From contig CAVWLK010000068.1 of the NCBI GenBank assembly GCA_963755675.1, positions 58,626 through 122,625 on the forward strand: DNA of 64,000 nucleotides, written 5' to 3'. This DNA comes from an uncultured Actinomycetes bacterium. Its GTDB lineage: Bacteria; Actinomycetota; Thermoleophilia; Gaiellales; JAICJC01. Positions 9,587 through 28,590 of this stretch are shown here, one piece after another (the stretch's first letter is position 1; the number at the start of each line of letters is the position of its first letter). Below the pieces are notes generated by a model. It did no database searches. It saw nothing but the letters and a program-made list of their open reading frames with translations, and was not told the origin of the DNA. A program made the translations under genes and the position numbers.

Positions 9587-10398
9587 ACGCGCTCGCCTCC
9601 CGCATTCTCGTGGCGGTGCCGCTGGCCGTGGTCGCGATCCTTGCCGTCGTCGCGGGCGGCTGGCCGATGGTCGGACTGGCCGTTGTGGGCGCCGTGGTCG
9701 CGATGCACGAGTTCGGGCAGATGACCCGCGATCTGCGCCCGCTGACAATCGGCGGGTTCGCCGGCGTGATCGCGATCATCGTGACGATCCACGAGGGCGG
9801 CTTGGTCTGGAGCCTGCTGCCGCTGATGGCGACGCTGCTTGTGACGTTCTGGCTGAGCGCGGTCGCTGACGTCCGCCAGACAGCCACAGTCCAGCTCGCG
9901 GTGACGCTGTTCGGCGTGGTGTGGATCGGGTATGGGATCGGGTTCCTGGTCGCCCTGCGCGACATCGAGCAGAACTCGGGCTGGGGTGAGACGCTGCTGA
10001 TCGCGGTGCTGATTGGCGTCTGGATGTCGGATATCTTCGCCTACGTCGGCGGGCGCATGTTCGGCCGTCGCAAGCTCGCTCGCGAGATCTCGCCCAACAA
10101 GACGGTGGAGGGCTTGTTGATCGGCCTGCTGGTGGGCACCGCCACCGTCTTCTTCTGGCTCTACGGCCGGCCGGTTGACGATCCGATCAGCCCTCTCAAC
10201 GCCTTCGAGTTCGCGCTTGCGATCGGCATCACATCGCCGGTCGGAGATCTGTTCGAGAGCTACCTCAAGCGGGACTGGGGCGTGAAGGACGTGGGCAGGC
10301 TGCTGGGAGGCCACGGCGGCGTGCTCGATCGGATCGACGCCCTACTGTTCGCCGGCGCGGCGGCGTACTTCGTGGCGCTCGCTCTCGGTCGCGCCTAG
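9583..10398 (+). CDS. cdsA: phosphatidate cytidylyltransferase
   Basis: DIFAYVGG, ISPNKTVEG, GDLFESYLKR, GVKD, GHGGVLDRID. Confidence 0.95.
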   Translation: MNALASRILVAVPLAVVAILAVVAGGWPMVGLAVVGAVVAMHEFGQMTRDLRPLTIGGFAGVIAIIVTIHEGGLVWSLLPLMATLLVTFWLSAVADVRQTATVQLAVTLFGVVWIGYGIGFLVALRDIEQNSGWGETLLIAVLIGVWMSDIFAYVGGRMFGRRKLAREISPNKTVEGLLIGLLVGTATVFFWLYGRPVDDPISPLNAFEFALAIGITSPVGDLFESYLKRDWGVKDVGRLLGGHGGVLDRIDALLFAGAAAYFVALALGRA

Positions 10399-10542
10399 AT
10401 GGTTGATTCCATGCCAAGCGTGGATGGCGGGCGCGTTGGGCGGCGGGATCGCTCGCAGCGCAGGCTCGGGAAGCCCTGGGCAAGAGCGATCGTGACGCCC
10501 AGCGTGTGCCTGCGCGGCGCTGGGTATGGAATCAGCCATCTC
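10396..10542 (-). repeat. palindromic MITE/REPIN-like element, copy 1 (inverted orientation, internally shortened)
   Basis: Ends AGATGGTTGATTCCAT / ATGGAATCAGCCATCT; reverse complement aligns to 19237-19406 and 28397-28566 with two internal deletions. Confidence 0.9.
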
Positions 10543-11285
10543 TACGCGTCGCGCGTGACCACTCGCCAGGCGCCGATCGCCAGTGCCACGGCCATCCAGA
10601 GCGCGATCGTGATCCAGGCTTGCGACGAGCTCACCTGGTGCTCGCTGTAGCGGGCCAGATCCTCGCGGGCGAAGTGGTCGACGGCGGGCCCCAGCAGCCA
10701 GTCGCGCATCCGGCCGAGCTGGTCGATGTGGGTTAGCAGCGGCTGCACCACCCACTCCAGCACGATCAGGCCTCCGATCACCCAGCCCCGCGAGCCGGCC
10801 AGCGCCGCGAAGGAGACGCCAAGCACGGTCAGCGTTCCCAGCAGCAGCGCGAGGTAGCCGGCGTCGTCGCGGATCAGGTTCCAGCTCACGCTCGGCTCAC
10901 TGCCGGCCAGCGCATATCCAGCCGCGACCGAGATCAGGTAGGCCGGGATGACCAGCATCGACACCACGATCAGCGCGCCCGGCGGACGCACAGTGAACAG
11001 CTTCAGCCGAGACACGCCGGTCGCCACCAGGTCGCGGAACACTCCGGAGCTGTGATCTTGCGATCCGGCCGTGGCGCCGATGGCCGTCGCGATCAGCCCT
11101 CCGAACGAGATGATCGCGTACATGCAACCGGTGTAACCGCCCTCGCCGCCCGTTTGCGTGTAGGAAACCGCCCGCACTGCGAGGATCACGAGCACGCTGC
11201 CCAGCATGAACGCCAGCGCAGTCCACATCAGGCCGCGCCGGCGTACCAGCTTCAGCACCTCGGCCGCGATCAGCGAGCGTGTCAC
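10542..11285 (-). CDS. ABC-2 type transporter permease
   Basis: LIAAEVLKL N-terminus, six hydrophobic segments, VATGVSRLKLF, ends TRDA; coupled to the ATPase. Confidence 0.88.
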   Translation of the reverse strand: MTRSLIAAEVLKLVRRRGLMWTALAFMLGSVLVILAVRAVSYTQTGGEGGYTGCMYAIISFGGLIATAIGATAGSQDHSSGVFRDLVATGVSRLKLFTVRPPGALIVVSMLVIPAYLISVAAGYALAGSEPSVSWNLIRDDAGYLALLLGTLTVLGVSFAALAGSRGWVIGGLIVLEWVVQPLLTHIDQLGRMRDWLLGPAVDHFAREDLARYSEHQVSSSQAWITIALWMAVALAIGAWRVVTRDA

Positions 11286-12229
11286 TCCGGCTCGGGCTCC
11301 TCGCCCAGCCGGGAGGTGATCTCCAGGAACCGCTGCTCGAGGGTGGCCGCCACTGGCTCCAACCGGTACACCGCCACTCCGGCCGCTACCAGCGCGCGAT
11401 TGACCGCCACTGCCGACGCTCGGCCACCGTCGTCATCGACCTCGACCAGCGTCAGCTGGAGCACGCCGCCTTCGACCCTCGCGGCGGTCACCGCCGGGCT
11501 GCCCGTGATAAGCGCCAGCGCGCGTGCGGGGTCGTCGCACCCCACAACCAGCAGCTTGTCGCCGCCCGAGCGAAGCTCGTCCAGCGTGCCCTCGGCGATC
11601 AGCCGGCCCTGGTCGACGATCGCCACCCGGTCGCAGATGCGCTCCACTTCCGCCAGCAGGTGCGAGGAGAGGAACACCGTGCGGCCCTCGTCCACGAACC
11701 CCCGGATCATGGCCCGGAACTCGTGGATACCGGCCGGATCCAGCCCGTTTGACGGCTCGTCCAGGATCAGCAGGCCTGGATCGGAGAGCAGGCAGCGGGC
11801 GACCCCCAGGCGCTGGCGCATGCCCAGGGAGTAGCGCTTGACGCGCTCATCGGCGCGGTCGCCGAGGCCGACCTTGGCCAGCGACGTGGCGACCCGGTCG
11901 AACGCCTCGCTGCCCCGTGCCGCCGCGATGATGCGCAGGTTCTCGCGCCCGGTGAGGTGGTTGTGGAACCGCGGCTCCTCGACGATCGCGCCCGTTCGCG
12001 CCAGCGCGGACGCCCGTTCGGCCGGCAGCTGAAGTCCCAGCATCGAGATCTCGCCCTGGTTGGGACGGGTGAGGCCGAGCAGCATCCTGATCAGCGTCGT
12101 CTTGCCGGCGCCGTTCGGCCCCAAGAAGCCGTACGCGCACCCTTCGGGCACGGACAGCTCGAGCGAGTCGACGGCCGTACGCGAGCCGAAGCGCTTGGTG
12201 AGACCGGAAACCTCGATCGCTGCGGCCAT
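11282..12229 (-). CDS. ABC transporter ATP-binding protein (BcrA/export type)
   Basis: GPNGAGKTT, YSLGMRQRLG, LILDEPSNGLDP, SSHLL. Confidence 0.95.
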   Translation of the reverse strand: MAAAIEVSGLTKRFGSRTAVDSLELSVPEGCAYGFLGPNGAGKTTLIRMLLGLTRPNQGEISMLGLQLPAERASALARTGAIVEEPRFHNHLTGRENLRIIAAARGSEAFDRVATSLAKVGLGDRADERVKRYSLGMRQRLGVARCLLSDPGLLILDEPSNGLDPAGIHEFRAMIRGFVDEGRTVFLSSHLLAEVERICDRVAIVDQGRLIAEGTLDELRSGGDKLLVVGCDDPARALALITGSPAVTAARVEGGVLQLTLVEVDDDGGRASAVAVNRALVAAGVAVYRLEPVAATLEQRFLEITSRLGEEPEPE

Positions 12230-12311
12230 GGGCGGCGGATGCTAGATCATCAAGCCCGGAGGTGGCGGCGGGCCAACCGGTCTGCAATCCGTCGCCGGTA
12301 GACTTTGCACG

Positions 12312-13457
12312 ATGAGGTCAGTCGCCATCCTCGGCGCGACCGGCTCGGTCGGTGCGCAGGCGCTTGAGATCGTCCGCGACAGCCCCGACCTGCGTCTGGT
12401 GGCGCTTTCCGCCCACTCCAGCTCCGGGCCGCTGCTGGATGCCGCCCATGGGCACGGCGTCGAGCTGCTGGCGCTGACCGACGCCGGCGCCGCCGCGGCC
12501 GTCCGCAGCGACGTCCCCGGCAGGCTGTTCGAGGGCCACGCGGGGCTGGTCGAGATGGTGCGCGCCGCCGGCGCGGATGTGGTGCTGAATGCCGTCGTCG
12601 GCGCGGCCGGCCTCGAGGCGACGATGGCGGCGCTCGAGTCGGGCAGCGACCTGGCGCTGGCAAACAAGGAGAGCCTGGTGGCGGGGGGCGAGCTGGTGAC
12701 CGCCGCCGCGCGGCGGTCGGGTCGCCGGCTGCTGCCGGTCGACAGCGAGCATTCCGCGCTCTACCAATGTCTGGAGACCGGACCCGCCGAGGCGCTCGAC
12801 TCGCTGGTGCTGACTGCGTCGGGCGGACCGTTTCGCGGCTGGTCGCGGGAGATGCTGGCCGACGTCACCGCGGAACAGGCGCTGGCCCACCCCACCTGGT
12901 CGATGGGGGCGAAGATTACGATCGACTCGGCAACGTTGATGAACAAGGGTCTGGAGCTGATCGAGGCGCACCACCTGTTCGGGGTGCCCTACCAGCGGAT
13001 CGAGGTGGTCGTGCATCCACAATCGATCGTGCACGGCATGGCCCGTTACCGGGACGGCTCTCTGATCGCGCATCTGGGCCTGCCCGACATGCGCGTGCCG
13101 ATCAGCTTCGCGCTCACCCATCCTCACCGGGCGGCCACGCCGGCGCCACGGCTCGACCTTGCCCAGCCGTTCTCGCTCGACTTCGAGCCGCCCGATACCG
13201 CTGCCTTCCGCTGCCTGGCGCTGGCGCGGCAGGCGGGGGAGGCGGGCGGCACGGCACCGTGCATCCTGAACGCGGCCAACGAGGCCGCCGTCGCGGCGTT
13301 CCTGAGCGGCGGCTGCAGCTTTCCGCAGATCGCCGACACCGTCGAGGCGGTGCTCGATCGGATGCCGGTCGAGCCGCTGGAGTCGGTGCCCCAGGTGCTC
13401 GCCGCCGACGCCCGCGCCCGTGAGCTCGCCCGCGCCGAACTGGGGGTGGCGGTGTGA
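12312..13457 (+). CDS. dxr: 1-deoxy-D-xylulose-5-phosphate reductoisomerase
   Basis: LGATGSVG, LANKESLV, PVDSEHSA, LTASGGPF, HPTWSMGAKITIDSATLMNKGLE, NAANE. Confidence 0.97.
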   Translation: MRSVAILGATGSVGAQALEIVRDSPDLRLVALSAHSSSGPLLDAAHGHGVELLALTDAGAAAAVRSDVPGRLFEGHAGLVEMVRAAGADVVLNAVVGAAGLEATMAALESGSDLALANKESLVAGGELVTAAARRSGRRLLPVDSEHSALYQCLETGPAEALDSLVLTASGGPFRGWSREMLADVTAEQALAHPTWSMGAKITIDSATLMNKGLELIEAHHLFGVPYQRIEVVVHPQSIVHGMARYRDGSLIAHLGLPDMRVPISFALTHPHRAATPAPRLDLAQPFSLDFEPPDTAAFRCLALARQAGEAGGTAPCILNAANEAAVAAFLSGGCSFPQIADTVEAVLDRMPVEPLESVPQVLAADARARELARAELGVAV

Positions 13458-14704
13458 GGTATCTGATCCCGATCCTCGGTCTGCTGCTGCTGGTCTTCCT
13501 GCACGAGCTTGGTCACTTCGTCGCCGCCAAGCGCACCGGCATGCGCGCGCTGCGCTTCTTCGTCGGCTTTCCACCGGCACTGGTCAGCCGTCGGGTTGGC
13601 GAAACGGAATACGGCATCGGCATGATCCCGCTCGGCGGCTTCGTCAAGATCCCGGGGATGCTGAGGCCGGAGCCGTCCGACCTGTGGGCGATCGACGACA
13701 TCCTCGACCGCCGCGAGAGCCTCAGCAGCGAGGATGCCTCGGATATCGGCATCGCCCGCGACGAGATCGCCCGCCTAATTGCGGCCGGTGACATCGACCG
13801 CGCCGCCGATCGGGCCGCCGCCCTCCAGCAGCGGATCGACCAGAGCGAGGGGCTGACCGAGCGCGACCGGCGCCGCGCCGACAAATGCCTCAGCCGGCTG
13901 ATCGAGTCGAGCGACCCTCGCGGGTACTGGCGCAGCCGCCCCCGCCACCGCCTGATCGTGATCGCAGCCGGGCCGTTGGCCAACATCGCGGTCGCCTACC
14001 TGTTGCTCGTTGCGCTGGCCGCCACCGGCATGCCGCAGCCGCTGAAGGCGATCCCGGTGGTGGCCGGGATCGAGCGCGGCTTCCCCGCTCAAAAGGCCGG
14101 ACTGCGCACCGGCGACCGGATCGTCTCGGTCGACGGTCGCCGGGTGAGCGGCTTTGACCAGCTGCGCAACGTCATCGGCAGCAGCGCGGGCCGGCCGCTG
14201 CACATCGTCGTGCAGCGCGGCCAGGCTCAGGTCGCGCTTCCGGCCGTGAGCGCGCGGCAGGATCAGGGACGGTACGTGATCGGCTTCATCCCCGACGCCC
14301 AGGCCACAACCAGAACGGTGGCGGTGTGGCGAGCGCCGATCGAGGGCGGAGACCAGGTGTGGAGGATGATCTCGGGCACCTTCACCGGGATCCAGAGCCA
14401 GGGCGCCTCGTCGGTCTCAAGCCCCGTCGGCATCGTCCGCGTCTCGGCCGACGCCGCCGACACCGGCGCGCCCTACTACCTGTGGCTGCTGGCCTACATC
14501 TCGCTCTCGCTCGGCATCCTCAACCTGCTGCCGTTCCTGCCGCTGGACGGCGGCCACATCCTGCTGCTGGCGCTCGAGCGGATTCGCGGCCGGGTGCTCT
14601 CGCGGGCGACGTTCGAGCGCGTCTCGGCGTTCGGGATCGCACTGGTGCTGCTGCTGTTCCTGTTCGGGCTGCAGAACGACCTGCTGGGGGCGCAGCCGCG
14701 CTGA
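13454..14704 (+). CDS. rseP: RseP/RIP M50 site-2 metalloprotease with PDZ domain
   Basis: HELGH, IPLGGFVKI, AGPLAN, PDZ (AGLRTGDRIVSVDG), NLLPFLPLDGGH. Confidence 0.93.
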   Translation: MRYLIPILGLLLLVFLHELGHFVAAKRTGMRALRFFVGFPPALVSRRVGETEYGIGMIPLGGFVKIPGMLRPEPSDLWAIDDILDRRESLSSEDASDIGIARDEIARLIAAGDIDRAADRAAALQQRIDQSEGLTERDRRRADKCLSRLIESSDPRGYWRSRPRHRLIVIAAGPLANIAVAYLLLVALAATGMPQPLKAIPVVAGIERGFPAQKAGLRTGDRIVSVDGRRVSGFDQLRNVIGSSAGRPLHIVVQRGQAQVALPAVSARQDQGRYVIGFIPDAQATTRTVAVWRAPIEGGDQVWRMISGTFTGIQSQGASSVSSPVGIVRVSADAADTGAPYYLWLLAYISLSLGILNLLPFLPLDGGHILLLALERIRGRVLSRATFERVSAFGIALVLLLFLFGLQNDLLGAQPR

Positions 14705-14731
14705 GGGTGTGGCCGATCCTCGCATCAATCG

Positions 14732-14760
14732 TTGCAAATCGGACGGTTATGCCATAGGAT
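14732..14760 (+). promoter_or_regulatory. sigma-A type promoter for the large secreted protein
   Basis: TTGCAA (14732-14737), 17 nt spacer, TAGGAT (14755-14760). Confidence 0.65.
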
Positions 14761-14932
14761 CACCCGGAATCAACGCGACCCTTGGGGGGCCCATGGGATG
14801 ACGTGATGCGTTGAGTGGCTTCGGGATCGCTCCAGACATGCCCGACGCCGGAGGTTTGTCTTTGCCCGCCGGCTCCGCTGCGGCTCATACGGCAGGGCGG
14901 CAACTCTAACAGGGGGGACGATTGTCGTGAAA

Positions 14933-17160
14933 ATGCGACCGCACGGAGGATCCGGGCGTACCAGGCGACGGCGAGTTTCGATAGGAAGCTCGGTGTGCGC
15001 GTTGGTGGTGCTTGCAAGCCTCTACATCGTGGGGTCTGCTCAGGCCGTCCACGATCTCAGCTTCCAGCTCGACGGCGACACGAGCGTTACGTGCGGCACC
15101 GTGCCCGACTGCTCGACACAGACTCTCGACTGGAACAGCCTGTTCAACGCCAATGGAACGAACACCTCAACTATCGATCCGACGGCGACGGTCGGATTCA
15201 CGAACGGTGATTTCGTACGCGATTTCGGCGTGAAGGTCAGCGCCACCGACAAGTGCTCGCTCACGAACACCACGTCGACGACCTTCTGCACCGGCGACAG
15301 CACGACGTTCGCGACGGGCAGCAAGGACACCCTGAACATCACGCCGGGGTGGCAGTGCAACCACGACAACAACGTCAACAGCAAGATCGACATCATGAAC
15401 GCCTACTGCAGCGGCGTACACGGCGTCGAACGGCGACAAGATCATTTACTTCGGGCTGGACAAGAACAAGGACAACGGCAACAACAACGTCGGTTTCTGG
15501 TTCCTCCAGGGCGGCGCGAGTTGCACGTCGCCCAGCGGGAGCGTGCCGTTCACCGGGACTCACCAGGACGGCGACGTCCTGGTCGTCTCCGCGTTCACGA
15601 GCGGCGGCGGCGTGAGCAGCATCCTCGCCTTCCGGTGGGCGGGTGGTGCCACAGGCTGCATCGACTCGAACGACGACCCGAACCCGAAGACCGGCTGCAA
15701 TGGGCAGCCGATCGGCAGCGGCGGTGACTGTAAGGACGCCTCAGCCATCGGCACACATCCGGTCGACGTGATCTGTGCGACCACCAACTCTGGGACGAAG
15801 GCCTTCAACGGCAACATCACCACCAAGTGGCTCACCTCTGACGCCACGCTCGGTGTTGGCCATACCGTCGTGCCACCCGACTTCTTCGAGGGTGGGATCG
15901 ACATCACGAGGGCCTTCCAAGAGGCCGGCGGCACCACACCATCGTGCTTCAACACGTTCGTCGGCGATACCCGCTCCTCGCAGTCGCTCACCGCGACGCT
16001 GTTCGACTTTGCCCGCGGCCAGCTCGGGGAGTGCACGACGACCCTGACGACCAGCGCCGCCGGCACGGCCAACGGTGATATCGGCTCCGGCACGGTCTCG
16101 TCCGGTACTGACACGGCCACGTTGACCATCACCGGCACCACGAACTGGGGCGGGACGCTGACCTGGTACCTGTGCGGCCCTGTCGCAGTTGATGGGTGCG
16201 ACAACACCAAGGGCGTCCAGGTGACGAGCAGGACCGTCGAGCAATAGCTCTCCGGCGACCGACTTCGTCTCCGGCACGGCGAACCTGACGTCGGTGGGGC
16301 GCTACTGCTGGACGGCCCACTTTGAGCCGGACAGCGCAACCGCGGCGGCAGGTGTTACCGCGCAAAACGACACAGGGGTCGGAGAGTGCTTCACCGTCAG
16401 CCCGGTGACGCCGACGCTCGCCACGTCGGCGAGCTGTTCGGCGAACCCATGCGTCGTCGGCAACACGCTGAGCGATACGGCGACCCTCACCGGTGCTGCC
16501 ACCGGGCCGGGCACCAACGGCTCAAACACGAACTACCCGTCGATCAACGCCACCAGCCCACCGGCAGCGGGCGGTTCGATCAGCTGGATCGCATACGGGC
16601 CTGACAACTGCACAACTGTTGCAATGGCCTCGACGTCGAGGGATGTGAGCGGAAACGGGACGTACCCAACCGCCTCGCAAAGCGCGGTCAGCTTCACGGC
16701 CGGCGCGGTGGGCACGTTCACGTTCGTCGCCTCTTACACGGGCGACTCGCCGAACACGAACAGCGCCGGCCCCTCCGCATGTCCGGACACGACCGGCACG
16801 GAGAAGATCACGGTCGGCGGCAACGCCAGCATCGCGTCGGCACAGAGGTGGCTCCCGAACGACCGCGTAGTGGTGACGGGAGACGCCAACCTGAACGGCA
16901 CGTTGACCGTCACCCTGTACCCGAGCAGCGACTGCACCGGTACTGCGGTGAGCAACCAGTCCTACTCGACGACGTTCACGAATGCGACGAGCCCTCAGAC
17001 GTTCAACACGACCAACTCGACGTTCTTCGTCGGTACCAAGTCAGACGGTACCGCCGGAGGTGCGACGGGGGCCTACTCGTGGTTGGTGCACTACGCGGAC
17101 ACCAAGCTCAACAGCCCGACCGACACCTGCGAGTCGTCGAACGTCTCGATAACAAACTGA
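14933..17160 (+). CDS. large secreted Thr/Gly/Cys-rich protein with uncharacterised N-terminal beta domain and Ig-like repeats (two apparent +1 frameshifts at ~15408 and ~16239)
   Basis: Arg-rich n-region, hydrophobic core and AQA-V cleavage site. Three consecutive ORF pieces join when one base is removed at each break (NAY/AAAYTAS; SRTV/SNSSPAT). Repeats of DTATL...GG-T/S-x-T/S-W...GP...C and G-x-Y/F-x-W/F...Y. Confidence 0.75.
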
Positions 17161-17190
17161 TATCCAGGAAGGAGCGACTGGCTCGATGAA

Positions 17191-18128: not shown

Positions 18129-19239
18129 ATGGCCAGCCAGCGTCAGATCTCGGTCGGCGGCGTCGCGATCGGCGGCGGCGCTCCCGTCGTGATCCAGTCG
18201 ATGGCCACCACCGAGACGTCTGACGCGGCCGCCACGCTGGCCCAGATCGGGCGGCTTGCCGAGGCCGGCTGCGAGCTGGCCAGGGTGGCCGTCCCGGGCC
18301 GGGCTGACGCAGACGCGCTGCCGGCGATCGTCGCCGGCTCGCCACTGCCGGTGATAGCCGACATCCACTTCAACGCCTCCCTGGCGCTTCGCGCCATGGA
18401 CGCCGGCGTTGCGGCCGTGCGCATCAATCCCGGCAACATCGGCGGCGACGACAAGGTCGAGCAGGTCGTGCGGCGCGCGCAGCAGACCGGCACCCCGATG
18501 CGGATCGGCGCCAACTCGGGCTCGCTGCCAGACCACCTACGGCAGTTCGCCACCAACGATCCCGCCGGGCGCCCTGGTCGAGGCCGCGCTCGAGGAGGTG
18601 CGGCTGCTGGAAAGGCTCGACTTCCGCGAGTTCAAGATCTCCGTCAAGTCCTCCTCGGTGCCGGTGATGATCCAGGCCTATCAGCGGCTGTCGCAGAAGG
18701 TTCCCTATCCGCTGCACCTGGGCGTGACCGAGGCCGGTCCTGCATTCACGGGTACGGTCAAGAGCGCGATCGGGATCGGGACGCTGCTCTCACAGGGCGT
18801 GGGCGACACGATGCGCGTCTCGCTGACCGCCGACCCAGTCGAGGAGGTGCGCGTCGCCTGGGAGATCCTGCGGTCGCTCGGCCTGCGCCAGAAGGGGCCG
18901 ATGATGATCGCCTGCCCGTCCTGCGGCCGCACCAACGTCGAGGTGATGGAGCTTGCCGAACAGGTCGAGCAGCGGCTGGCCGGCTACGACGAGGTGTTCG
19001 AGGTGGCGGTGATGGGCTGTGCCGTGAACGGTCCGGGTGAGGCCGGCGACGCGGACTTCGGTATCGCCGGCGGGCGGGACGCGGGCTTCATCTACGCCCA
19101 CGGCCAGGTGCTGCGCAAGGTGCCTCAGAGCGAGCTGGTGGAGCAGCTCTTCCTCGAGATCGATGCCTGGATCGGAGCGGGGATGGTGCGGCCGGAGCGG
19201 CGCACGCGCAAGCACGTCCTGCCGATGGCGACGATCTAG
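18129..19239 (+). CDS. ispG: 4-hydroxy-3-methylbut-2-en-1-yl diphosphate synthase (apparent frameshift at ~18568)
   Basis: IQSMATT, ADIHF, RINPGNIG, RIGANSGSL / ISVKSS, YPLHLGVTEAG, GDTMRVSL, CPSCGR, MGCAVNGPGEA. Confidence 0.95.
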
Positions 19240-19406
19240 ATGGTTGATTCCATATCCATCGCGGCGCAGGATCGGGCCCAGGACACGCTGGACGGCACGA
19301 TCGCTCTTGCCCAGGGCTTCCCCAGCCTGCGCTGCGAGCGCTCCCGCCGCCCAACGCGCCCTGTTCTCCGCCCTGCATTCACGCTGGATATGGAATCAAC
19401 CATCTA
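19237..19406 (+). repeat. palindromic MITE/REPIN-like element, copy 2 (full length, 170 nt)
   Basis: Perfect 22 bp terminal inverted repeat TAGATGGTTGATTCCATATCCA / TGGATATGGAATCAACCATCTA. Confidence 0.92.
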
Positions 19407-19544
19407 ACGGTTCTCGCGATCGTCCAGGTAGCGTGCGAAGCGGGCGTGCTTGTCGAGGTAGGCGCGCATCTCGCGGAAGCCGTAGTCGACCCACTCGCCG
19501 ATGAAGCGGTCGTCGATCTCCGTGGTGTTGGCCGTATGATCCAT
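19404..19544 (-). CDS. small hypothetical protein (46 aa)
   Basis: MDHTANTTEIDDRFIGEWVDYGFREMRAYLDKHARFARYLDDRENR; AAGGGGTG SD upstream; GC3-rich codons. Confidence 0.65.
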   Translation of the reverse strand: MDHTANTTEIDDRFIGEWVDYGFREMRAYLDKHARFARYLDDRENR

Positions 19545-19661
19545 CCCGATCACCCCTTCGCTCGTTGACGATGGGAGAGAATCGACGAACCCGCGTCGTC
19601 CTGCCATCACCGGCTTGCGGTATTCGACTCCCGCTCTTGGGTAGCTCATTAGACTAGGGCG

Positions 19662-19877
19662 ATGAAAGCGCGCAGAGCACTTATCAGCTACGTCAGCTTC
19701 TGGCTCGGCCGGCGGATCGTCGAGCGGATCATCCACCGGCAGGTCAAGCGCAAGGTCATTGCGTTTCTGGAGCCTCCGAAGCAGTCCAGGCTGCGTCGCA
19801 GGCTGCCGCTGGTGGGCGGCGCCGTCGCACTCGCGGCCGCTGCCGCGGCTGTGGTGTTGGCCCGGCAGCGCACATAG
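19662..19877 (+). CDS. small basic protein with C-terminal membrane anchor
   Basis: 71 aa, Arg-rich, ends LPLVGGAVALAAAAAAVVLARQRT; TAGACT 6 nt before ATG. Confidence 0.6.
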   Translation: MKARRALISYVSFWLGRRIVERIIHRQVKRKVIAFLEPPKQSRLRRRLPLVGGAVALAAAAAAVVLARQRT

Positions 19878-19919
19878 GCATCTGGCTCCGTCACCCCTGA
19901 TCGTTACACTGGCTCGGCC

Positions 19920-22900
19920 GTGACCGAAGCCTCGCCGTACGTCCACCTCCACGTCCACAGCGAGTACTCGATCCTCGACGGGGCATGCCGGATCGCTCCG
20001 CTCGTCGCCCGCGCGGCAGACCTCGGCATGCCCGCGATCGGGCTCACCGACCACGGCTCGATGGCGGGAGCGGTGGAGCTGACGCGGGTCGCCCAAGGCG
20101 GGCCTAAGTCCGGTGCTGGGCTGCGAGGTGTATCTGGTGGACGATCACGCCGCACGGCCGCTGCGTGAGAAGCGGGCCCACCTGACCCTGCTGGCCGAGA
20201 CCACGGAGGGCTACCACAACCTGATCCGGCTTGTCTCCAGTGGCTACCTGGACGGGTACTGGTACAAGCCGCGCGTCGACTTCGACCAGCTCTCGTCGCA
20301 CGCCGACGGCATCATCGCACTGTCCGGCTGCCTGTCCGGACGTGTCTGCAAGGCGCTGATCGAGGACGATCCCAGGGCGGCCCGGGAGGAGCTCGACCGG
20401 CTCGTCCAGATCTTCGGGCGCGATGACACGTATGTCGAGATCCAGGACGGCGGCATCGACGTCCAGACGCGGATCCTCCCGGCGTTGATGGAGCTGGCCC
20501 GTGACGCCGGGCTGCCGATGGTCGGCACCGGCGACGTCCACTATCTCACTCGCGACGACGCCATCCCGCACGAGGCGCTGCTCTGCATCCAGACGCAGGA
20601 CACGCTCGACAACCCCGACCGTTTCCGGTTCTCCAACCACGAGTTCTATCTGAAGACGCCGCAGGAGATGTATGCGCTGATGGCCGGGCGATTCGGCGAG
20701 GAGACGCTGCGGCGCACGGCCGAGATCGCCGAGCGCTGCAACGCCGAGGTCGGGCTGGGCGCGATGCACCTGCCGCGATTCGACGTGCCCGAGGGCATCA
20801 CGGCGGTCCGCTACCTGCGGCAGTTGGCCGAACAGGGCCTGCGCGAGCGCTACGACGCCGAGACGCCCGAGCTGCGCTCGCGGCTCGAGTTCGAGCTGAA
20901 GACGATCGAGGAGATGGGCTTCGCCGACTACTTCCTGATCGTCTGGGACTTCATCCGCTTCGCGCGTGAGGACGGGGTCGCGGTCGGCCCGGGCCGAGGC
21001 TCGGCGGCCGGCTCGCTGGTCGCCTACTGCCTGCGCATCACCGACCTCGACCCGATGCGCTACTCGCTGCTGTTCGAGCGCTTTCTCAACCCGGGCCGCA
21101 AGAGCATGCCCGACATCGACATCGACTTCGCGGTGGCCGGCCGCGAGCGCGTGATCAACTACGTGGCGGAGAAGTACGGCCGGCGCAACGTCGCCCAGAT
21201 CATCACCTTCGGCAAGATGCAGCCCAAGGCCGCGATCAAGGACGCCGGGCGGGTGATGGGCATCGCCTACGGACAGGTCGACCGGATCGCGAAGCTGGTG
21301 CCGGACGGGCCCAAGGTCTCGTTCGACGAGTGCATGAAGCCCGGCGCCGAGCTGCGGAAGAGCTACGACAGCGACGAGACGACCCGCTCGATCGTGGACA
21401 TGGCGCGTCCGCTGGAAGGAGTGGTGCGAAACGACTCCATCCACGCCGCCGCGGTCGTGATCGGCGACCGGCCGCTGACGGAGTACCTGCCGCTGCAGCA
21501 GAAGGGCAGCGATTCCGAGATCGTGACGCAGTTCTCGATGGGAGACGTCGAGGAGCTGGGACTGCTCAAGATGGACTTCCTCGGCCTGCGCAACCTGGAT
21601 GTGATCGACCGGGCCGTCGAGCTGATCGGGCAGTCGAACGGCGGCGCGCCGGCGATGGACGAGCTGCCGCTGGACGACGAAGCCACCTACGCGATGTTGG
21701 CCCGCGGCGACGCCACCGGCGTCTTCCAGTTCGAGTCGAGCGGCATGCGCGAGGCGCTCCGCCAGGTGAGGCCGACGCGGTTCGAGGACCTGGTCGCCCT
21801 GGTCGCGCTCTACCGGCCCGGGCCGATGCAGAACATCCCGAAGTTCGCCGCGCGCAGGAACGGACGCGAGCCGGTCACGTATCCGGACGCGCGCCTGGAG
21901 GAGATCCTCTCCGAGACGGCGGGCGTGACGATCTATCAGGAGCAGTCGATGCTGATTGCTCGCGAGCTCGCCGGCTTCAGCCCGGCCGAAGCCGATGATC
22001 TGCGCAAGGCGATCGGCAAGAAGATCCGCTCGCTAATGGACTCGCTTAAGGACAAGTTCATCGACGGTTGCCTCGCCAATGGCATCTCACAGCAGGTGGC
22101 CCTGCAACTGTGGGACGACAACGAGCGGAGCCGGATTACGCCTTCAACAAGGCCCACGCAGCCTGCTACGCGCTGATCGCCTACCGCACCGCCTGGTTGA
22201 AGGCCAACCACCCGGCCGAGTACATGGCGGCCCTGATCTCGTCGGTGATGTCCACCAAGGACCGGGTGCCGTTCTACGTCGCGGAGTGCGAGTCGATGGG
22301 CATCGAGGTGCTGCCGCCGGACGTCAACTCCAGCCAGTCCGACTTCGCCGTGGTGGACGGCCGCATCCGCTTCGGACTGACCGCCGTCAAGCGGGTCGGA
22401 GAGGGGGCGGTGCGCGCGATCGTGGCCGCCCGCGAGCAGTCGCCGTTCACCTCGATCTGGGATTTCTGCGAGCGGGTGGACGCATCGGCGCTGAACAAGG
22501 GCATGCTCGAGAGCCTCGTCTGCTGCGGTGCGCTGGACTCGACCGGCGCCACTCGGCGCGCGATGATGGAGGTGCTCGAGCCGGCGCTTGCCTCAGGCGT
22601 GAAGCAGCAGTCCGACACGATGATGGGTCACATGTCGATCTTCGACATCGCCGGCGACGACGACGGTGCCGGTGCGCTGGCGGTTCGCAGCCACCCCGCC
22701 GTGGTCGGCGAGGAGTGGCCGAGGGCCGAGCTGCTGGCGCGCGAGAAGGAGGCGCTGGGACTGTTCGTGTCCAGCCACCCGCTGGCCGATGTCCGGGATC
22801 AGCTGTCTCGCCGCTCCGACGTGCCGCTCTCGGCGGCCGAGTCGCTGCGTGATGGCCAGGTCGTCACGGTGGGCGGGCTGGTGACGGGCGTGAAGCCGTT

Positions 22901-23344
22901 CGTCACCCGTAAGGGAGACACGATGGCCTTCGCCGAGCTGGACGACACCACCGGCTCGATCGAGGTGGTGGTGTTCGCCAACACGCTGGCCGCCGTGCGC
23001 CACTTCCTGGTGCCGGACGCGGTCGTGATGGTGAAGGGCCGCGCCGACCGCAAGAACGAGGGCGAGGTGAAGCTGGTGGCGCTCGAGATCACCGTCTTCG
23101 AGGCCACAGCCGACTTCGGTGTCGTTCGACTGAGGCTGGACGCCCGCGAGACGCCGGCCGCGATCATCCAGGAGCTGAAGTCGCTGATCGGCGAGTTCCC
23201 CGGCGACGCGCCGGTCGTGCTCGAGGTGCAGACCAGCGACGGGCCGAAGACGCTCCGCTTCGGCCCGAGTTCAAGGTGCGACCGGACGGCGACTTCTTCG
23301 CCGAGGCCAAGGCGTTGCTTGGCGACGCCGCCTTGATCGCGTAG
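19920..23344 (+). CDS. dnaE: DNA polymerase III alpha subunit (apparent frameshifts at ~20095-20110, ~22132, ~23266)
   Basis: PHP domain [17 protein letters not shown]; [35 protein letters not shown] fold; C-terminus [19 protein letters not shown] ends at TAG 23342-23344. Confidence 0.95.
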
Positions 23345-23356
23345 AGCCACGCAAGA

Positions 23357-25150
23357 CTAGGGGTCGGTAATCTCCCGCTCCGCCTGATCGACCATCCGCT
23401 CCAGCTCGAGCAGGCCCTCGTCCCAGATGCCGGGATCGTTGAGATCCACACCCAGCGGCGCCAGTAGCTCGGCTGGGCTGGCCGAGCCGCCACGGTCGAG
23501 GAACTCCAGGTAGCGGCCCGCGAACGCATCGGGATCGTCGCGGCGCCGTGACATCAGCACCAGCGCCACCAGGCAGGCGAAGGAGTAGGAGTACATGTAG
23601 AAGCGGTACAGCAGGAAGTGGGGGAAGATCGCCCAGGCCGAGGCATTCGGCTCACCGGCAACGCTGTCGGCCAACCCCAGGCGCATCCGTCCCGACCAGA
23701 TCGCGTCCAGCCGCTCCGGTGTAAGCGTCACCCCGGTGCGCTTGACGGCGTACATCTCGCGCTCGAACTCGGCTGCCACAGCGACCTCGAAGACGCAGCC
23801 TACGGCGGTCTCGATCGCGGATCCGATCAGCGCCGCCCGCGCGCCGGGTGCGGTCGCTCGCGCTCGCATGCCGTCGCAGAGCAGCAGCTCCGCCAGCGTC
23901 GAGGGCACCTCGGCCACGCCCATCGTGGGCAGGGCGACGTGGACGCTCTGGGCGGGGAAGCAGCGGTCGAAGTGCAGGCCATGGCCGAGCTCGTGCGCCA
24001 TCACCTGGACGTCGAACAGGCGCCCCGTGTGGTTCAGCAACACGAAGCTCCGAACGCGATCGTCGACCTCGTTGCAGAATGCGCCTCCCATCTTGCCGGG
24101 GCGCGGTGACGCGTCCACCCGGCCCTCGGCGAAGACCGCGGCCACCGTGTCACCGGCTTCGGCTGACAGCTCCCGGAAGCACTCGGTGACGACTGCCACG
24201 GCCTCGTCATAGCCGACCTCGGGGGGCGTTCCGACCGGGGCGTGGCGATCGCTGATGCTCAGCACCGGCACAGCTAGATGTGCGGCCTTGACGCGCATCC
24301 ATCGCCGCCAGAGGTCGCCGCGCCGCTCGATCGTCGACAGCATCGACTCGATCGACGCGGGCTCGAGCTGGTTGTCGAGGTGGGCGGGGAGCATCGCGTC
24401 GTCGTAGCCACGCAGGCGGTCCATCGCAAGCCGGTCGCCGACCACGGCGTCGAGGCAGCGGGCCGCCGTTGGTGCCAGCTGCTGCGCTTGGTCCACAAGG
24501 CGGTCGTACGCCGTCCGGCGAACGTCGGGGTGGGCATCGGTCTGCGCCGCGGTCAGGTCGCTGAACGTCTGCTCGCGTTCGCCGTCGCCCAGGTCGCAGG
24601 ACACGGTCATGGACGACGAGACATCGTTCCAAAACCGCCACCATGCCAGCTCGGCAGAGGCCGTTCGCGCGGCGATTGCGCGCTCCTCGCCGCTGCTCAA
24701 CGTGTGCGGGCCAAACCGCCGCGAGGCGATCAGGAAGTGGCGATCCCGCGCCAGCAGCTCGTCGTCCGCCAGAGCAGCGGCGGCCGGGTCAGGCAGCGCC
24801 AGCCACGCAAGGTCGAAGCCGCGCAGCGCATCGTCGACGTCCGGGAGCCGCTGCTCGATCAGCGACGCCAGGTCGGCGGCGGCCGCGTCGCGCGAGTCCT
24901 CGGCCAATCTCAGCTCCGCGTAGACGCGCAGCCGCCGCACCCGGTGCTTGAGCCTTCCCAGCTCCTCGAGCAGCGCTGCCAGCTGCGGCGCGGTGACCAT
25001 CGTCAGGTCGGGCAACCGGCCGGCGACCGCAGTGCTGTCGGCGACCAGCTGCTCCAGCTCGCGCGCCGCCGCGTCGTCATCCGCATACAGCGCCGACAGA
25101 TCCCATCGGGCGTCGATCCCTGCCGTCGATTCTGTTCCGGTCGCGCTCAC
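23357..25150 (-). CDS. pepF: M3B oligoendopeptidase F
   Basis: WDLSALY N-terminus, PRPGKMGGAFC, AHELGHGLH, AEVPSTLAE, HF...FYMYSYSF. Confidence 0.9.
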   Translation of the reverse strand: MSATGTESTAGIDARWDLSALYADDDAAARELEQLVADSTAVAGRLPDLTMVTAPQLAALLEELGRLKHRVRRLRVYAELRLAEDSRDAAAADLASLIEQRLPDVDDALRGFDLAWLALPDPAAAALADDELLARDRHFLIASRRFGPHTLSSGEERAIAARTASAELAWWRFWNDVSSSMTVSCDLGDGEREQTFSDLTAAQTDAHPDVRRTAYDRLVDQAQQLAPTAARCLDAVVGDRLAMDRLRGYDDAMLPAHLDNQLEPASIESMLSTIERRGDLWRRWMRVKAAHLAVPVLSISDRHAPVGTPPEVGYDEAVAVVTECFRELSAEAGDTVAAVFAEGRVDASPRPGKMGGAFCNEVDDRVRSFVLLNHTGRLFDVQVMAHELGHGLHFDRCFPAQSVHVALPTMGVAEVPSTLAELLLCDGMRARATAPGARAALIGSAIETAVGCVFEVAVAAEFEREMYAVKRTGVTLTPERLDAIWSGRMRLGLADSVAGEPNASAWAIFPHFLLYRFYMYSYSFACLVALVLMSRRRDDPDAFAGRYLEFLDRGGSASPAELLAPLGVDLNDPGIWDEGLLELERMVDQAEREITDP

Positions 25151-25247
25151 GGCCGGATTGTGCCAGGGCGGGCAAGCCGTCATCAACCCTGTGAAGGGCG
25201 ATTGACCGTTTCCGCCGCCATCCGCCTGGCCACCTAGAATGGCGCGA

Positions 25248-26016
25248 ATGATCCTTGCCGACCTCGAGCTCGACCTTGACGTCTTCCAGGGGCCGTTCGA
25301 CCTGCTGCTCGCACTGGTGCTGCGCGAGGAGGTCGAGCTGGCCGAGGTGCCGATCGCCGAGATCGTCGTGGCCTACGTCGGCCGCGCCTACGACCAGGGT
25401 GAGCTCGACCTCGAGTCGGCCAGCGAGTTCCTGGTGCTGGTCGCGGCCCTGCTCGAGATCAAGGTGCGCCTGCTGTTCCCGGGCGAGCTCGACGAGCTGG
25501 ATGAGTTGTCGCCCGAGCAGGCCGAGGCCGAGCTGTTCCAGCGCCTGATCGAGTACCGCCGTTTCCAGGGCGCGGCAGGATGGCTTCGCGAACGTGCCGC
25601 AGCAGGAACTGCGGGTCTTCCGCGACGGTCCGGCGCCGCTCGCGCCGCGTCCCGAGCCGCCGGTGGTCGAGTTCAGCGAAGATCCCTGGCAGCTGGCGGC
25701 CGCCATCGAACGTCTGCTGGTCCCACCGCCGCACATCGACGTCTCGTCCGTGCGGAGGCCACTGGTTCCGGTCGAGAAGTTCCTCGACCACTTTCGGACG
25801 ATCCTCGCGACCCGTCGCGGCTTCCAATTCGACGAGGCGGTTCGTGGCCTCGATCGGCTGTCGCAGGCGGCGGCGTTCTTGGCGCTGCTTGAGATGGTCA
25901 AGCGCGGGGAGGTTGCGGCCGAGCAGCAGGAGCTGTTCGCCCCGATCGCGGTCACCGGGCGTGGCGCCGGCGAATCCGCTCGCGACGACGTCGAGTCCGA
26001 ACGGGCGATCGCGTGA
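25248..26016 (+). CDS. scpA: segregation/condensation protein A (apparent frameshift at ~25600)
   Basis: FQGPFDLLLALV, ASEFLVLVAALLEIKVRLL / FLALLEMVK...QQELFAPI. Confidence 0.92.
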
Positions 26017-26594
26017 GCGAGCTGACGCATTCTGTCGAGGCGCTGCTGTTCGTCGCCTCCCAGCCGCTCTCGCTGAAGGAGCTGGCGTCGCTCACCGACG
26101 CCCCTCCGGAGCGGATCGAGCGGGCGCTGGACGCGCTCGGCGACCGTTACGGTGAGGGTCGCTCGGGGGTCGTCCTGGAACAGGCCGCCGGCGGCTGGGG
26201 CTTCCGCGCCTCCCGCGAGACGGCCGAGGTTTGCGCCAGGCTCGTCAACCGGCCGAGTGCGAAGGGCATCAGCCAGGCGGCGCTCGAGACGCTCGCGATC
26301 ATCGCGTACCTGCAGCCGGTGTCGCGACCGGAGATCGCCCGCATGCGCGGCGTCGGCGCCGATTCGGCAGTGTCCGGATTGCTCGAGCGCGGGCTGATCG
26401 AGGAGGCCGGTCGGGCCGACTCACCCGGCTCGCCGGTGGTCTACCGGGTCACCAACGCGTTCCAGCGCGTGTTCGGCATCGACGACCAGCAGGGACTGCC
26501 CGAGCTCTCGGACTTCGAGCTGACCGAAGACGATCACCAGGCGCTTCGCGCCCGCCTGCACCTGGTCGCCGACCAGCGTGCCGGTCAGGCTTAA
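26013..26594 (+). CDS. scpB: segregation/condensation protein B
   Basis: VEALLFVA, AGGWGF, SQAALETLAIIAYLQPVSRPEI...RGV. Confidence 0.95.
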   Translation: MSELTHSVEALLFVASQPLSLKELASLTDAPPERIERALDALGDRYGEGRSGVVLEQAAGGWGFRASRETAEVCARLVNRPSAKGISQAALETLAIIAYLQPVSRPEIARMRGVGADSAVSGLLERGLIEEAGRADSPGSPVVYRVTNAFQRVFGIDDQQGLPELSDFELTEDDHQALRARLHLVADQRAGQA

Positions 26595-27267
26595 CAGGTT
26601 CCTGGCCTCCACCGGGCTGGGCTCCCGACGCGCGGTCGAGGAGCTGATCCGGGCCGGACGGGTGACCGTGAACGGCGAGGTGGCCGGGCTGTCGGCGAAG
26701 GTATCAGCCGGTGACGACGTCCGCGTCGACGGGCGGCAGGTGTCGGCCGAGGCCACCACGTGCCTGCTCCTCAACAAGCCGGCCGGCGTGGTGACGACGG
26801 CGGCCGACACCCATGGCCGGCGCACCGTGCTCGACCTGGTGGATTCGCCGCTGCGACTGTTCCCCGTCGGCCGGCTCGACCTGGAGACGACCGGGGCGCT
26901 GCTGTTGACCAACGACGGTGATCTGGCGCACCGCCTGATGCACCCGCGTCACGGCGTCGAGAAGACGTACCTGGCGCGGGTGCGCGGGCACCCCGATCAG
27001 GGCGTCCTCGAGCAGCTCAGCGCCGGCGTCTCGCTGGAGGACGGCGTGACCGCTCCCGCCGTGGTCGCGCTGCCGGCCGCCGACACGATCGAGCTCACCA
27101 TCCACGAGGGACGAAACCGCCAGGTGCGGCGGATGTGCGAGGCGGTCGGCCACCCGGTGGTGCAGCTGCACCGATCGCACTACGCGGGGCTGGGGCTTGG
27201 TGATCTACAGCCGGGGGAGTGGCGGGAGCTGACATCCGAGGAGCTCTCGGGTCTGTCTTCGGCCTGA
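26578..27267 (+). CDS. rluB: RsuA/RluB-family pseudouridine synthase
   Basis: RLNRFLA...SRR, LNKPAGV, FPVGRLD, LLTNDG, IHEGRNRQVRRM. Confidence 0.92.
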   Translation: MPVRLNRFLASTGLGSRRAVEELIRAGRVTVNGEVAGLSAKVSAGDDVRVDGRQVSAEATTCLLLNKPAGVVTTAADTHGRRTVLDLVDSPLRLFPVGRLDLETTGALLLTNDGDLAHRLMHPRHGVEKTYLARVRGHPDQGVLEQLSAGVSLEDGVTAPAVVALPAADTIELTIHEGRNRQVRRMCEAVGHPVVQLHRSHYAGLGLGDLQPGEWRELTSEELSGLSSA

Positions 27268-27283
27268 CCGTAGTGCTCGTCAC

Positions 27284-27312
27284 TTGACAGGCTCCGTCGC
27301 GGTGTGAATACT
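27284..27312 (+). promoter_or_regulatory. orphan sigma-A type promoter
   Basis: Consensus TTGACA (27284-27289), 17 nt spacer, AATACT (27307-27312); no + strand gene downstream. Confidence 0.55.
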
Positions 27313-27317
27313 GCTGC

Positions 27318-27400
27318 TAACACTTTCCTTACAACTGGAAGGTCGGAGGAGACAGAAACGGGCGGCTCCGGGCGCGGCCACCAAAGGCCGCGCCCGCTGC
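27318..27400 (+). ncRNA. candidate ~80 nt small RNA
   Basis: AT-rich 5' hairpin ACTTTCC/GGAAGGT, CGGAG/CTCCG stem, then 11 bp terminal hairpin; directly downstream of the orphan promoter. Confidence 0.4.
27369..27396. terminator. hairpin terminator between convergent rluB and trpS
   Basis: CGGGCGCGGCC-ACCAAA-GGCCGCGCCCG, 11 bp perfect stem. Confidence 0.75.
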
Positions 27401-27402
27401 CA

Positions 27403-28383
27403 TCACCCGGCGAATCCCATTAGGCGGCGCATCTCGGCCAGCGTCTCGCTCGACACCGACCGAGCCCGCTCGGCGCCGGCATCCAGGATCGACCGCAGGG
27501 CGGCCTCGTCCGCCCGCAGCTCGAGATAGCGCTCGCGCACCGGCCGCAGCATCTCGACCACGGCCTCGGCCACGTCCGCCTTGAAGTCGCCGTAGCCCTT
27601 GCCCTCGTACGCTGCCTCGATCTCGTCGTCGCTCTGCCCGCTCGCGATCGAGAGCAGCTCGATCAGGTTGGCGATGCCGTCCTTGTCCGGGCCCCGCCGC
27701 ACCTCACGGCCGGAGTCGGTGACCGCAGCGCGGATCTTGGAGGCCACCACCTCAGGCGGATCGAGCAGCAGCACGGTGCCCTGCGGCGTGCCGCCGGTGG
27801 TGGACATCTTGCTGGTCGGCAGCTGGAGGTCCATCACACGGCCGCCGCTGGACGGGATCGCCGCTTCCGGCAGCGGAAACAGCTCCCCGAACCGGTGGTT
27901 GAACCGCTGCGCGATGTTTCGGGCCAGCTCGAGGTGCTGGCGCTGGTCGTCGCCCACCGGCACGCGGTCAGCGCGGTAGAGCAGGATGTCCGCCGCCTGC
28001 AGCACCGGGTAGGTGAAAAGATCGATCGAGACCGAGTCCTGGCCGTGGCTCTTCTCCTTGAACTGCGTCATCCGCCGCAGCTCGCCCATCGTCGCCACGG
28101 CCCCCAGCAGCCAGGCGCCAATGGCGTGTGCATCGACGTCGCTCTGGATGAATAGCGTGCAGCGGGACGGCTCGAGGCCGGCCGCCAGCAGCGTGGCCGC
28201 GGTGTCGAGCGTGTTTTCGGACAGCTCCGCCGGCTCGTACGGCACCGAGATCGAGTGCAGGTCGACGATGCAGTAGAACGCCTCGCCGAGATCCTGGTCG
28301 GTGACGTAGTGGCGGATGGCGCCGATGTAGTTGCCGAGGTGCTTGGTGCCGGTCGGCTGGATGCCCGAGAAGACTCGCGTCAT
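27403..28383 (-). CDS. trpS: tryptophanyl-tRNA synthetase
   Basis: FSGIQPTG..HLGNYIGA, YPVLQAADIL, VPVGDDQRQHLELAR, KMSTT. Confidence 0.96.
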   Translation of the reverse strand: MTRVFSGIQPTGTKHLGNYIGAIRHYVTDQDLGEAFYCIVDLHSISVPYEPAELSENTLDTAATLLAAGLEPSRCTLFIQSDVDAHAIGAWLLGAVATMGELRRMTQFKEKSHGQDSVSIDLFTYPVLQAADILLYRADRVPVGDDQRQHLELARNIAQRFNHRFGELFPLPEAAIPSSGGRVMDLQLPTSKMSTTGGTPQGTVLLLDPPEVVASKIRAAVTDSGREVRRGPDKDGIANLIELLSIASGQSDDEIEAAYEGKGYGDFKADVAEAVVEMLRPVRERYLELRADEAALRSILDAGAERARSVSSETLAEMRRLMGFAG

Positions 28384-28396
28384 GGGTCCGAGAATT

Positions 28397-28566
28397 TAGA
28401 TGATTGATTCCATGTATGGCGCGGCGCAGGGTCGGGCCCAAGACTCGCTGACCGGCACGATCACTCTTGCCCAGGGCTTCCCCAGCCTGCGCTGCGAGTG
28501 CTCCCACCGGCCAACGCGCCCTGATCTCCGCCCTGCATCCACGCCGCACATGGAATCAACCATCTG
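28397..28566 (+). repeat. palindromic MITE/REPIN-like element, copy 3 (170 nt)
   Basis: AGATGATTGATTCCATGT / ACATGGAATCAACCATCT ends; gap-free alignment with copy 2. Confidence 0.92.
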
Positions 28567-28590
28567 GCCGCTCGGTAGACTGAACGTCCC

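Follow-up and report, generated by a model that had tools for sequence, protein, structure and literature searches.

A 64,000-nucleotide stretch of an uncultured Actinomycetes bacterium of the order Gaiellales, class Thermoleophilia (positions 58,626 to 122,625 of contig CAVWLK010000068.1, assembly GCA_963755675.1; hereafter the window), carries three copies of a palindromic sequence whose subterminal stems differ from copy to copy and still pair within each copy. What kind of element this is, how it came to lie at three places and what keeps its two arms complementary are the questions that this locus raises. A preliminary description, made from the letters of the window, had proposed a dispersed mobile family with TA flanks that is under selection for a single-stranded fold, and comparison with the source genome, its relatives and public genomes bears out both the family and its mobility (25 loci in the source genome; empty orthologous sites). 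We give a probability of about 0.72 to the overall reading that the copies are MITEs (miniature inverted-repeat transposable elements) that have the ends of an IS982 clade of insertion sequences (ISs), inserted at the TA of CTAG and kept as a hairpin on one strand.

Copies, target sites and spread of the family

The three copies lie where they were first placed and share terminal inverted repeats of 13–14 bp, GATGGTTGATTCCA / TGGAATCAACCATC (Table 1). BLASTN between copies gave E = 5.5e-57 for copy 2 against copy 3, which are 88% identical, and E = 1.9e-37 for copy 2 against copy 1, values that exclude chance likeness; copy 1 is a form without two short internal stretches and has the opposite orientation to the other two. 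The limits originally given for copies 2 and 3 stand, while the right limit of copy 1 moves from 10542 to 10540, the element being followed there by TC and then TA.

Each of the three sites has an empty counterpart among relatives, a comparison that the preliminary description had proposed as a check. A 20-kb query around the copies recovered orthologous regions in all 16 genomes of the genus: the copy 1 site is empty in genome G002, the copy 2 site in G001 and G006, and the copy 3 site in G006, G011, G007, G004 and G013, while G002 is filled at the copy 3 site and G001 has a 62-nucleotide remnant-like stretch there. Set against the filled form, the empty copy 3 site (...GTAG/TGCC...) fits the layout G-TA-[G...C]-TA-G; a 2-bp duplication of TA within (C/G)TAG, followed by a single change in each of the filled genomes, would account for these junctions slightly better than a 4-bp duplication. 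Copy 3 and its orthologue in G002 (L015) differ at several paired subterminal positions (ATGTATGGCG/CGCCGCACAT versus ACATCCAGCG/CGCCGGATGT) between flanks that are 90% identical, which suggests that one copy was replaced, that an element re-inserted into the same CTAG or that gene conversion took place. When contigs from four DNA runs were compared with 9500–29400, the matches were only short fragments of related bacteria from soil metagenomes, and none gave a clear junction spanning a copy.

Iterated nhmmer on the whole source metagenome-assembled genome (MAG; G000, 3.63 Mb in 115 contigs, 65% complete) yielded 58 matches on both strands that resolve into 25 loci, 22 of 145–228 nucleotides and three partial. 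Besides the main family there is a second with the same ends, a similar core and different stems, and there are forms of 225–228 nucleotides with two extra small hairpins and of 69 nucleotides. A scan for the 14-nucleotide end, allowing up to two mismatches, found 60 sites in this genome, among them elements of 38–45 bp that consist of ends only, fused ends and solo ends. The expectation of many more copies genome-wide is therefore met in kind, through the 25 loci, the minimal forms and the solo ends, and less so in number, which is only moderate. Copy 2 matches 13 of the 16 other genomes of the genus by BLASTN, gives weak matches in three genomes that belong to two further genera of the same family; the 16 genomes examined from other families of the order have none. 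One of the BLASTN-negative genomes of the genus (G016) has 26 exact ends and elements of 197–257 bp with other, branched interiors.

Beyond these relatives, a scan of public genomes, with one genome per species and exact end pairs 115–145 nucleotides apart, found such pairs in at least 119 stretches, and 80 loci were kept (the far copies). Their record titles are almost all those of MAGs of Solirubrobacterales, Conexibacter, Thermoleophilaceae, Gaiellales or 'Actinomycetes'; a few name Bifidobacteriaceae or Propionibacteriaceae, and the element family found under Bifidobacteriaceae titles also occurs in four genomes of the window's own class (G148, G311, G402 and G430). Within that class the distribution is patchy: of 401 genomes sampled evenly, 7 have exact end pairs. 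The interiors of the far copies are very diverse, yet all 80 are 152–172 bp long and form a single long hairpin. Lengths of 1 modulo 3 are in excess (51 of 80 far and 55 of 74 genus copies), which makes element plus TA a multiple of three (165 or 168), and this may only reflect descent from two length classes.

The flanks of the far copies agree with the target read from the empty sites. The outer dinucleotide is TA at 58 of the 80 left and 61 of the 80 right ends (on both sides in 41), and CTA stands just outside 92 of 160 ends; in the source MAG, 1.1% of dinucleotides are TA, and there are 0.39 CTAG sites per kb. TA flanks are scarcer in the sets found by similarity (36/60 left and 23/60 right in one, 7/16 and 7/16 in the other), and the pattern match behind the TA-flank count dropped loci with insertions or deletions in their ends. 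The element starts with G and ends with C, so a TAG stop codon that is hit is rebuilt on both strands, which accounts for copies lying directly against the stops of convergent genes. With a strand caller based on codon usage in the source MAG (correct in 186 of 186 test windows), 78 of the 204 flanks of 102 elements could be called, and 57 of these are gene 3' ends abutting the element; of the remaining flanks three were too short and the others scored as non-coding. Short, without a gene of its own, with inverted ends, a target duplication, presence/absence polymorphism and an autonomous element that has the same ends, the family is a non-coding MITE, an ordinary kind of selfish element.

The same observations bear on whether the copies could instead be stand-alone small-RNA or small-protein genes. 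A conserved core, a strand-specific fold and a frame of 54–55 codons from ATG to TAG that is often open would all suit such genes. However, insertion polymorphism with TA flanks indicates mobility, the copies stand in unrelated contexts, the frame is open on either strand alike (62 versus 60 of the 80 far copies) and 29 of the 80 lengths are out of frame, which leaves stand-alone genes hardly tenable. Their small-protein version was rejected, there being no strand-specific open frame.

Three further observations concern how elements are built and how they decay. Two small hairpin modules (GGTGCAAGCC...GGCTTGCACC and CGATCTGCG...CGCAGATCG) recur as insertions within elements of differing backbone (L243–L246 in the source MAG; L271, L272 and L274 in G016; L116 and L070), and the family is therefore modular or recombining. 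Remnants of 16–24 bp with fused ends (TAGATGATTGATTCCATCTAG and similar) occur at contig C65:25745 of the source MAG and at L191 and L197; they fit interior deletion between the short CCAT repeats at both ends, a path of hairpin decay. On contig C39 of the source MAG (8811–11118) two copies of 225–228 nucleotides (L245 and L246) face each other 1.86 kb apart, each followed by the inward-reading start of one nuoL/Mnh-like open reading frame (ORF), an inverted duplication that encloses no transposase and may have arisen as an artefact of assembly or through a palindromic rearrangement at the element.

A candidate mobiliser among IS982-family insertion sequences

The preliminary description had suggested a search for the mobiliser among, for example, IS630-type or HUH/RAYT transposases, and neither of these two has the ends of the element at the loci examined; an IS982-family IS has both its ends and its target. 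PF13612 matched in 4 of 41 relatives, and in one of them, a genome of the same order (G027), the locus L264 is a 977-bp IS in a CTAG target, C-TA-GATGATTGATTCCG...AGGAATCAATCATC-TA-G, with its ends read as TA-GATGATTGATTCC...GGAATCAATCATC-TA inside CTAG. It adjoins the stops of convergent genes on both sides and has one ORF of 306 amino acids, which scores 181.5 bits against a cut-off of 130 with NCBIfam NF033520 (IS982 family transposase) and matches DDE_Tnp_1 and DDE_Tnp_1_3 in Pfam. Five further end sites accompany the IS in that genome. Three other IS982-like copies (L260–L262) have related or different ends, all in CTAG.

A metagenome scan with the L264 protein, from which 80 relatives were kept, extends this to a clade. 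Both ends lie within two mismatches of GATGGTTGATTCC in 53 of the 80, spaced 966–1137 bp apart (966–1006 bp in 52 of the 53), and 51 of these 53 ISs are flanked by CTA...TAG; of the other 27, eight have neither end and 19 a single one, in most cases because the contig breaks off. In one of the ISs (L307) the ends are exactly those of copy 2. Because ends and target are identical, we link the MITE to this group, and an IS982-clade transposase is its putative mobiliser in this lineage. Supplied in trans and often not resident, this DDE transposase would cut the element at its ends, which are those of a clade of ISs of about 970 bp, and the cut element would insert at the TA of CTAG, duplicating TA. 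A plain end search of five complete chromosomes found only 3–8 exact ends in each and no pair at the spacing of an IS.

TA duplication together with CTAG preference is the classical signature of IS630, and it would suit a RUP-like MITE of the IS630/Tc1-mariner type moved by a DDE_3 transposase. We nevertheless consider such a mobiliser very unlikely, since DDE_3 genes occur in only 8 of 61 relatives, the loci examined (L215 and L247–L259) are not bounded by the ends, and IS982-family ISs with these ends are numerous. The IS630/DDE_3 link was rejected, the only DDE_3 fragment of the source MAG (contig C3) having unrelated ends.

That the element is palindromic, forms a hairpin and lies between genes also recalls REP or REPIN sequences spread by a RAYT (Y1 HUH) transposase, and Y1_Tnp was found in three of five genomes searched (one gene in the source MAG, three matches each in G007 and G012). 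Against this, none of the seven Y1_Tnp loci contains a copy or an end, the complete chromosomes G042 and G043 carry the element without a Y1_Tnp match, REP sequences have neither a TA duplication nor inverted ends of 14 bp, and the Y1 gene of the source MAG seemingly has its own, different flanking repeat; spread by RAYT is scarcely credible. After that Y1_Tnp gene (L210, contig C32, about 1550–2400) come three or more copies of a different short repeat, with the translation ...VCR(P/T)CN(T/E)IGGSDP..., possibly its own REP-like partner.

A hairpin with strand polarity

The fold was derived from 83 genus copies aligned in homologous orientation, after three partial matches and one duplicate had been dropped and four long forms left out, and its RNAalifold consensus has 51 pairs. 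Standard pairs fill 97.2% of 4204 cells, against 89.4% after shuffling and 37–42% with partners slid by 1–3 columns; both sides have changed at 30 of the 51 pairs, and on each of five measures the observed value lies beyond all 500 shuffles. Some double changes recur within families, for example from A-U through G.U to G-C inside the ends. What had been noticed in three copies, namely subterminal stems that vary and still pair, compensatory change, and a core more conserved than the subterminal stem, is confirmed, the core being the best-conserved part of the 83-copy alignment.

The strand polarity of this fold is new and goes beyond the covariation noted earlier. On the aligned strand there are 601 G.U and 26 A.C cells, counts that the opposite strand reverses; G.U exceeds A.C in all 83 copies (median 7 versus 0) and makes up about 14% of standard-pair cells. 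The same strand folds better in 83 of 83 copies, with a mean difference of −35.6 kcal/mol under RNA parameters and −15.4 under DNA parameters (copy 2: −126.0 versus −90.9 kcal/mol). In the 80 far copies, where the strand was chosen by energy so that the direction is partly built in, the strands differ by 2.4–46 kcal/mol, and the chosen ones have 626 G.U pairs against 19 A.C mismatches and, among 1x1 mismatches, 187 G.G or A.G against 15 pyrimidine-pyrimidine. Copies occur in both orientations relative to neighbouring genes and GC skew and keep one polarity, which rules out a context-dependent mutation bias as its cause. The G.U/A.C asymmetry argues that the element acts at some step as a single strand, in support of the selection on a single-stranded fold that was first proposed, and most simply read it means that a particular strand has to fold on its own, either as RNA or as single-stranded DNA (ssDNA). 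The whole element would then be kept as a long hairpin on its G-rich strand, where G.U, G.A and G.G changes would survive and the mirror changes (A.C and pyrimidine-pyrimidine) would be purged.

Pairing might also be a by-product without function, if the arms were homogenised by templated repair, strand-switching or gene conversion between copies. Quasi-palindrome correction is an established mutational process, and the differences at paired positions between copy 3 and its G002 orthologue, in flanks 90% identical, fit replacement or conversion better than stepwise mutation. Correction of one arm by the other would, however, yield Watson-Crick pairs on both strands rather than G.U in excess of A.C by 601:26 and the same polarity in all 83 copies, and it leaves unexplained the 187 purine-purine against 15 pyrimidine-pyrimidine mismatches on the energy-chosen strands. 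We regard a functionless by-product as improbable.

As to which single strand is involved, a transcribed RNA hairpin is our lead guess, held tentatively and at somewhat less than even odds, ahead of an ssDNA fold; what remains is left to no function or to something else. A G.U share of about 14% and purine-rich internal loops look RNA-like. The alternative keeps the same MITE and requires its fold as ssDNA, the strand snapping back during replication or transposition and joining the ends and their TA flanks as a substrate for excision or copying. Such a role would suit a pattern that belongs to the family consensus and is inherited through propagation, since a cis requirement agrees with such inheritance better than would a host function exerted at individual loci; the asymmetry is also present in all 83 copies when DNA parameters are used, no bias to the sense strand of neighbouring genes is seen, and G.T, G.A and G.G are the least harmful DNA mismatches. 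Conversely, known DDE enzymes of the IS4, IS5 and IS982 types act on double-stranded ends, so large a share of G.U is more typical of RNA, and the orientation bias to the strand expected to be exposed at the replication fork is missing. We hold the ssDNA fold to be rather unlikely.

Several results weigh against the overall reading or one of its parts. The similarity between MITE and IS stops after 16–21 terminal bases, so the interior is not IS-derived and the two have the same ends without the MITE being a deletion derivative. The transposase query had no match in 10 carrier genomes, the source MAG and four complete chromosomes included, and 15 of the 16 genus members had none to PF13612; IS copies are often lost from MAGs. 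Many of the double changes are shared by whole subfamilies, and independent events lie far below 357 cells. A simple consensus scan, weak for actinobacterial promoters, found no promoter- or terminator-like site in the three copies, and the better-folding strand is sense to called genes in 28 cases and antisense in 50 (related insertions included; a non-significant trend), which runs against the sense bias that a role in read-through mRNA would give. An ssDNA role on the lagging-strand template would place the folding strand on the positive-GC-skew strand, where it lies at 7 of 22 loci of the source MAG (non-significant); by local gene strand, the same 22 loci divide 8 versus 14 (also non-significant).

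The conserved core is likewise strand-specific and not palindromic. On the minus strand of copy 2 it has GGGAGCG, the apex GCAGGCTGG and CAAG(A/G)(G/A)CGATCG, and the better-folding strand of the genus families has GGGAGCG, GCAGGCTGG and CAAGGACGATCGTGG. In the far families CAAGGACGCAGG stands some 0.35 of the way along the element and CCGAGGACGCAG some 0.59, a direct repeat that faces itself across the stem. These motifs are absent or rare on the opposite strand; the hexamers AGGACG, GAGGAC and CAAGGA, for instance, are present in 43, 39 and 31 far copies out of 80 and never on the opposite strand. Purine-rich motifs are opposed across the stem, AAGGACGCAG / GAGGACGCAG in many families and GGGAGCG / CAAGGACGATCG here, and most apical loops fit the pattern YGG(N)(G). 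We offer as a speculative, rather unlikely specification that the element may not be a purely passive MITE and that the facing purine-rich motifs and a GCTGG-type apex may form a strand-specific structured module acting as single-stranded nucleic acid in one of two ways: as a cis requirement for a single-strand step in DDE-type spread, or as a dispersed RNA module used by the host or the IS, such as a protein-binding or processing site at gene ends. The hairpin apex is GCTGGTGG in several far families (L081, L083, L089, L108, L115 and L141), the sequence of the Escherichia coli Chi octamer, possibly a coincidence in a G-rich loop; the apex of other far families is ACTGGAGG or GCCGGTGG.

Place in the window and relation to known systems

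Table 1. Coordinates of the three copies and their parts, as positions in the window
Feature	Position	Strand	Remarks
MITE copy 1	10396–10544; element 10398–10540	+ (G-rich, better-folding strand)	Short 143-bp form, inverted orientation; TA at 10396–10397
Inverted ends GATGGTTGATTCCA, copy 1	10398–10411 / 10527–10540		
MITE copy 2	19237–19406; element 19239–19404 (166 bp)	− (better-folding strand)	TA at 19237–19238 and 19405–19406
Inverted ends GATGGTTGATTCCA, copy 2	19239–19252 / 19391–19404		
Conserved central core, copy 2	19296–19361	−	Apical third of hairpin
MITE copy 3	28397–28566; element 28399–28564 (166 bp)	− (better-folding strand)	
Inverted ends GATGGTTGATTCCA, copy 3	28399–28412 / 28551–28564		
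Flanks of copy 3	28397–28398 / 28565–28566		TA on the left, degenerate TG on the right

Copies 1 and 2 abut stop codons on both sides. Copy 1 lies between convergent genes, where the TAG at 10396–10398 is the stop of a CTP_transf_1 (cdsA-like) ORF (9463..10398) and the CTA at 10542–10544 that of an unnamed minus-strand ORF (10542..11285); at copy 2 the TAG at 19237–19239 ends a GcpE/ispG ORF (18409..19239) and the CTA at 19404–19406 an unnamed minus-strand ORF (19404..20096). The neighbours of copy 3 are divergent, a minus-strand class-I tRNA synthetase gene (27403..28383) on one side and a plus-strand gene for a class-II DAHP synthase (28591..29958) on the other. Elsewhere in the window, 17147–17249, between two ORF ends, has weak Rfam matches to BSnc120 and BjrC68 on both strands (E 0.03–0.16, far below gathering scores) and is probably another palindromic intergenic repeat or a terminator.

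The family had been called undescribed, which stands as far as Rfam and the literature searched are concerned: an Rfam cmscan of 9000–30000 with E up to 1 gave five weak matches, none on a copy, and literature searches returned no paper that joins 'miniature inverted-repeat' with 'Thermoleophilia' and no other description of the family. The Thermoleophilia are abundant soil bacteria, hardly ever cultured, whose repeats are unannotated. Knowing the family keeps its copies from being misread as terminators, leaders or small-RNA genes and explains how the TAG stops of convergent genes come to lie inside one palindrome; the copies also mark places of strain difference and assembly breaks. DDE-type MITEs are thought to move as double-stranded DNA, whereas here there is a clean signature of selection on a one-strand fold. 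This feature is of wider interest; a single-strand step, in DNA or RNA, may be needed for spread or used by the host.

Among known systems, Correia/NEMIS of Neisseria and ERIC/IRU of enterobacteria are MITEs of 100–170 bp with TA ends and whole-length hairpins, often near gene ends; their mobiliser is not resident or not known, and RNase III processing and IHF sites are known for Correia. The family described here has no sequence relation to either and differs in its CTAG target, its candidate parent IS family and the one-strand bias of its fold. RUP of Streptococcus pneumoniae, with IS630-Spn1, duplicates TA. The TA duplication is common to RUP/IS630 and the present element, but the transposase family differs (DDE_3), and no such gene with these ends was found. 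TA duplication is described for IS630/ISY100, with a CTAG preference for IS630, in PMC2170065, whose reference list includes Tenzen and Ohtsubo 1991. The bcr1 repeat of the Bacillus cereus group, as presented in the Delihas review PMC3184786, is a mobile repeat of about 155 bp with 5-bp direct repeats, is transcribed, and has compensatory changes that keep its structure, which are read at the RNA level; unlike bcr1, the present element duplicates TA and has ends that match an IS982-type IS. A precedent for an IS982-derived MITE comes from Cardinium, where an element about 240 bp long and derived from ISCca4 is, according to PMC9769881 and as here, short, without a transposase, and has inverted repeats matching an IS982-family IS presumed to act in trans. 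That MITE belongs to another phylum and has another sequence, and it keeps short stretches of its parent IS, whereas here similarity ends at 16–21 bases, the interior forms one hairpin over its whole length around a conserved core, and most carriers are without the IS. By sequence, the element is a member of none of Correia, ERIC, RUP, bcr1 and the Cardinium IS982 MITE, and it resembles them in how it works.

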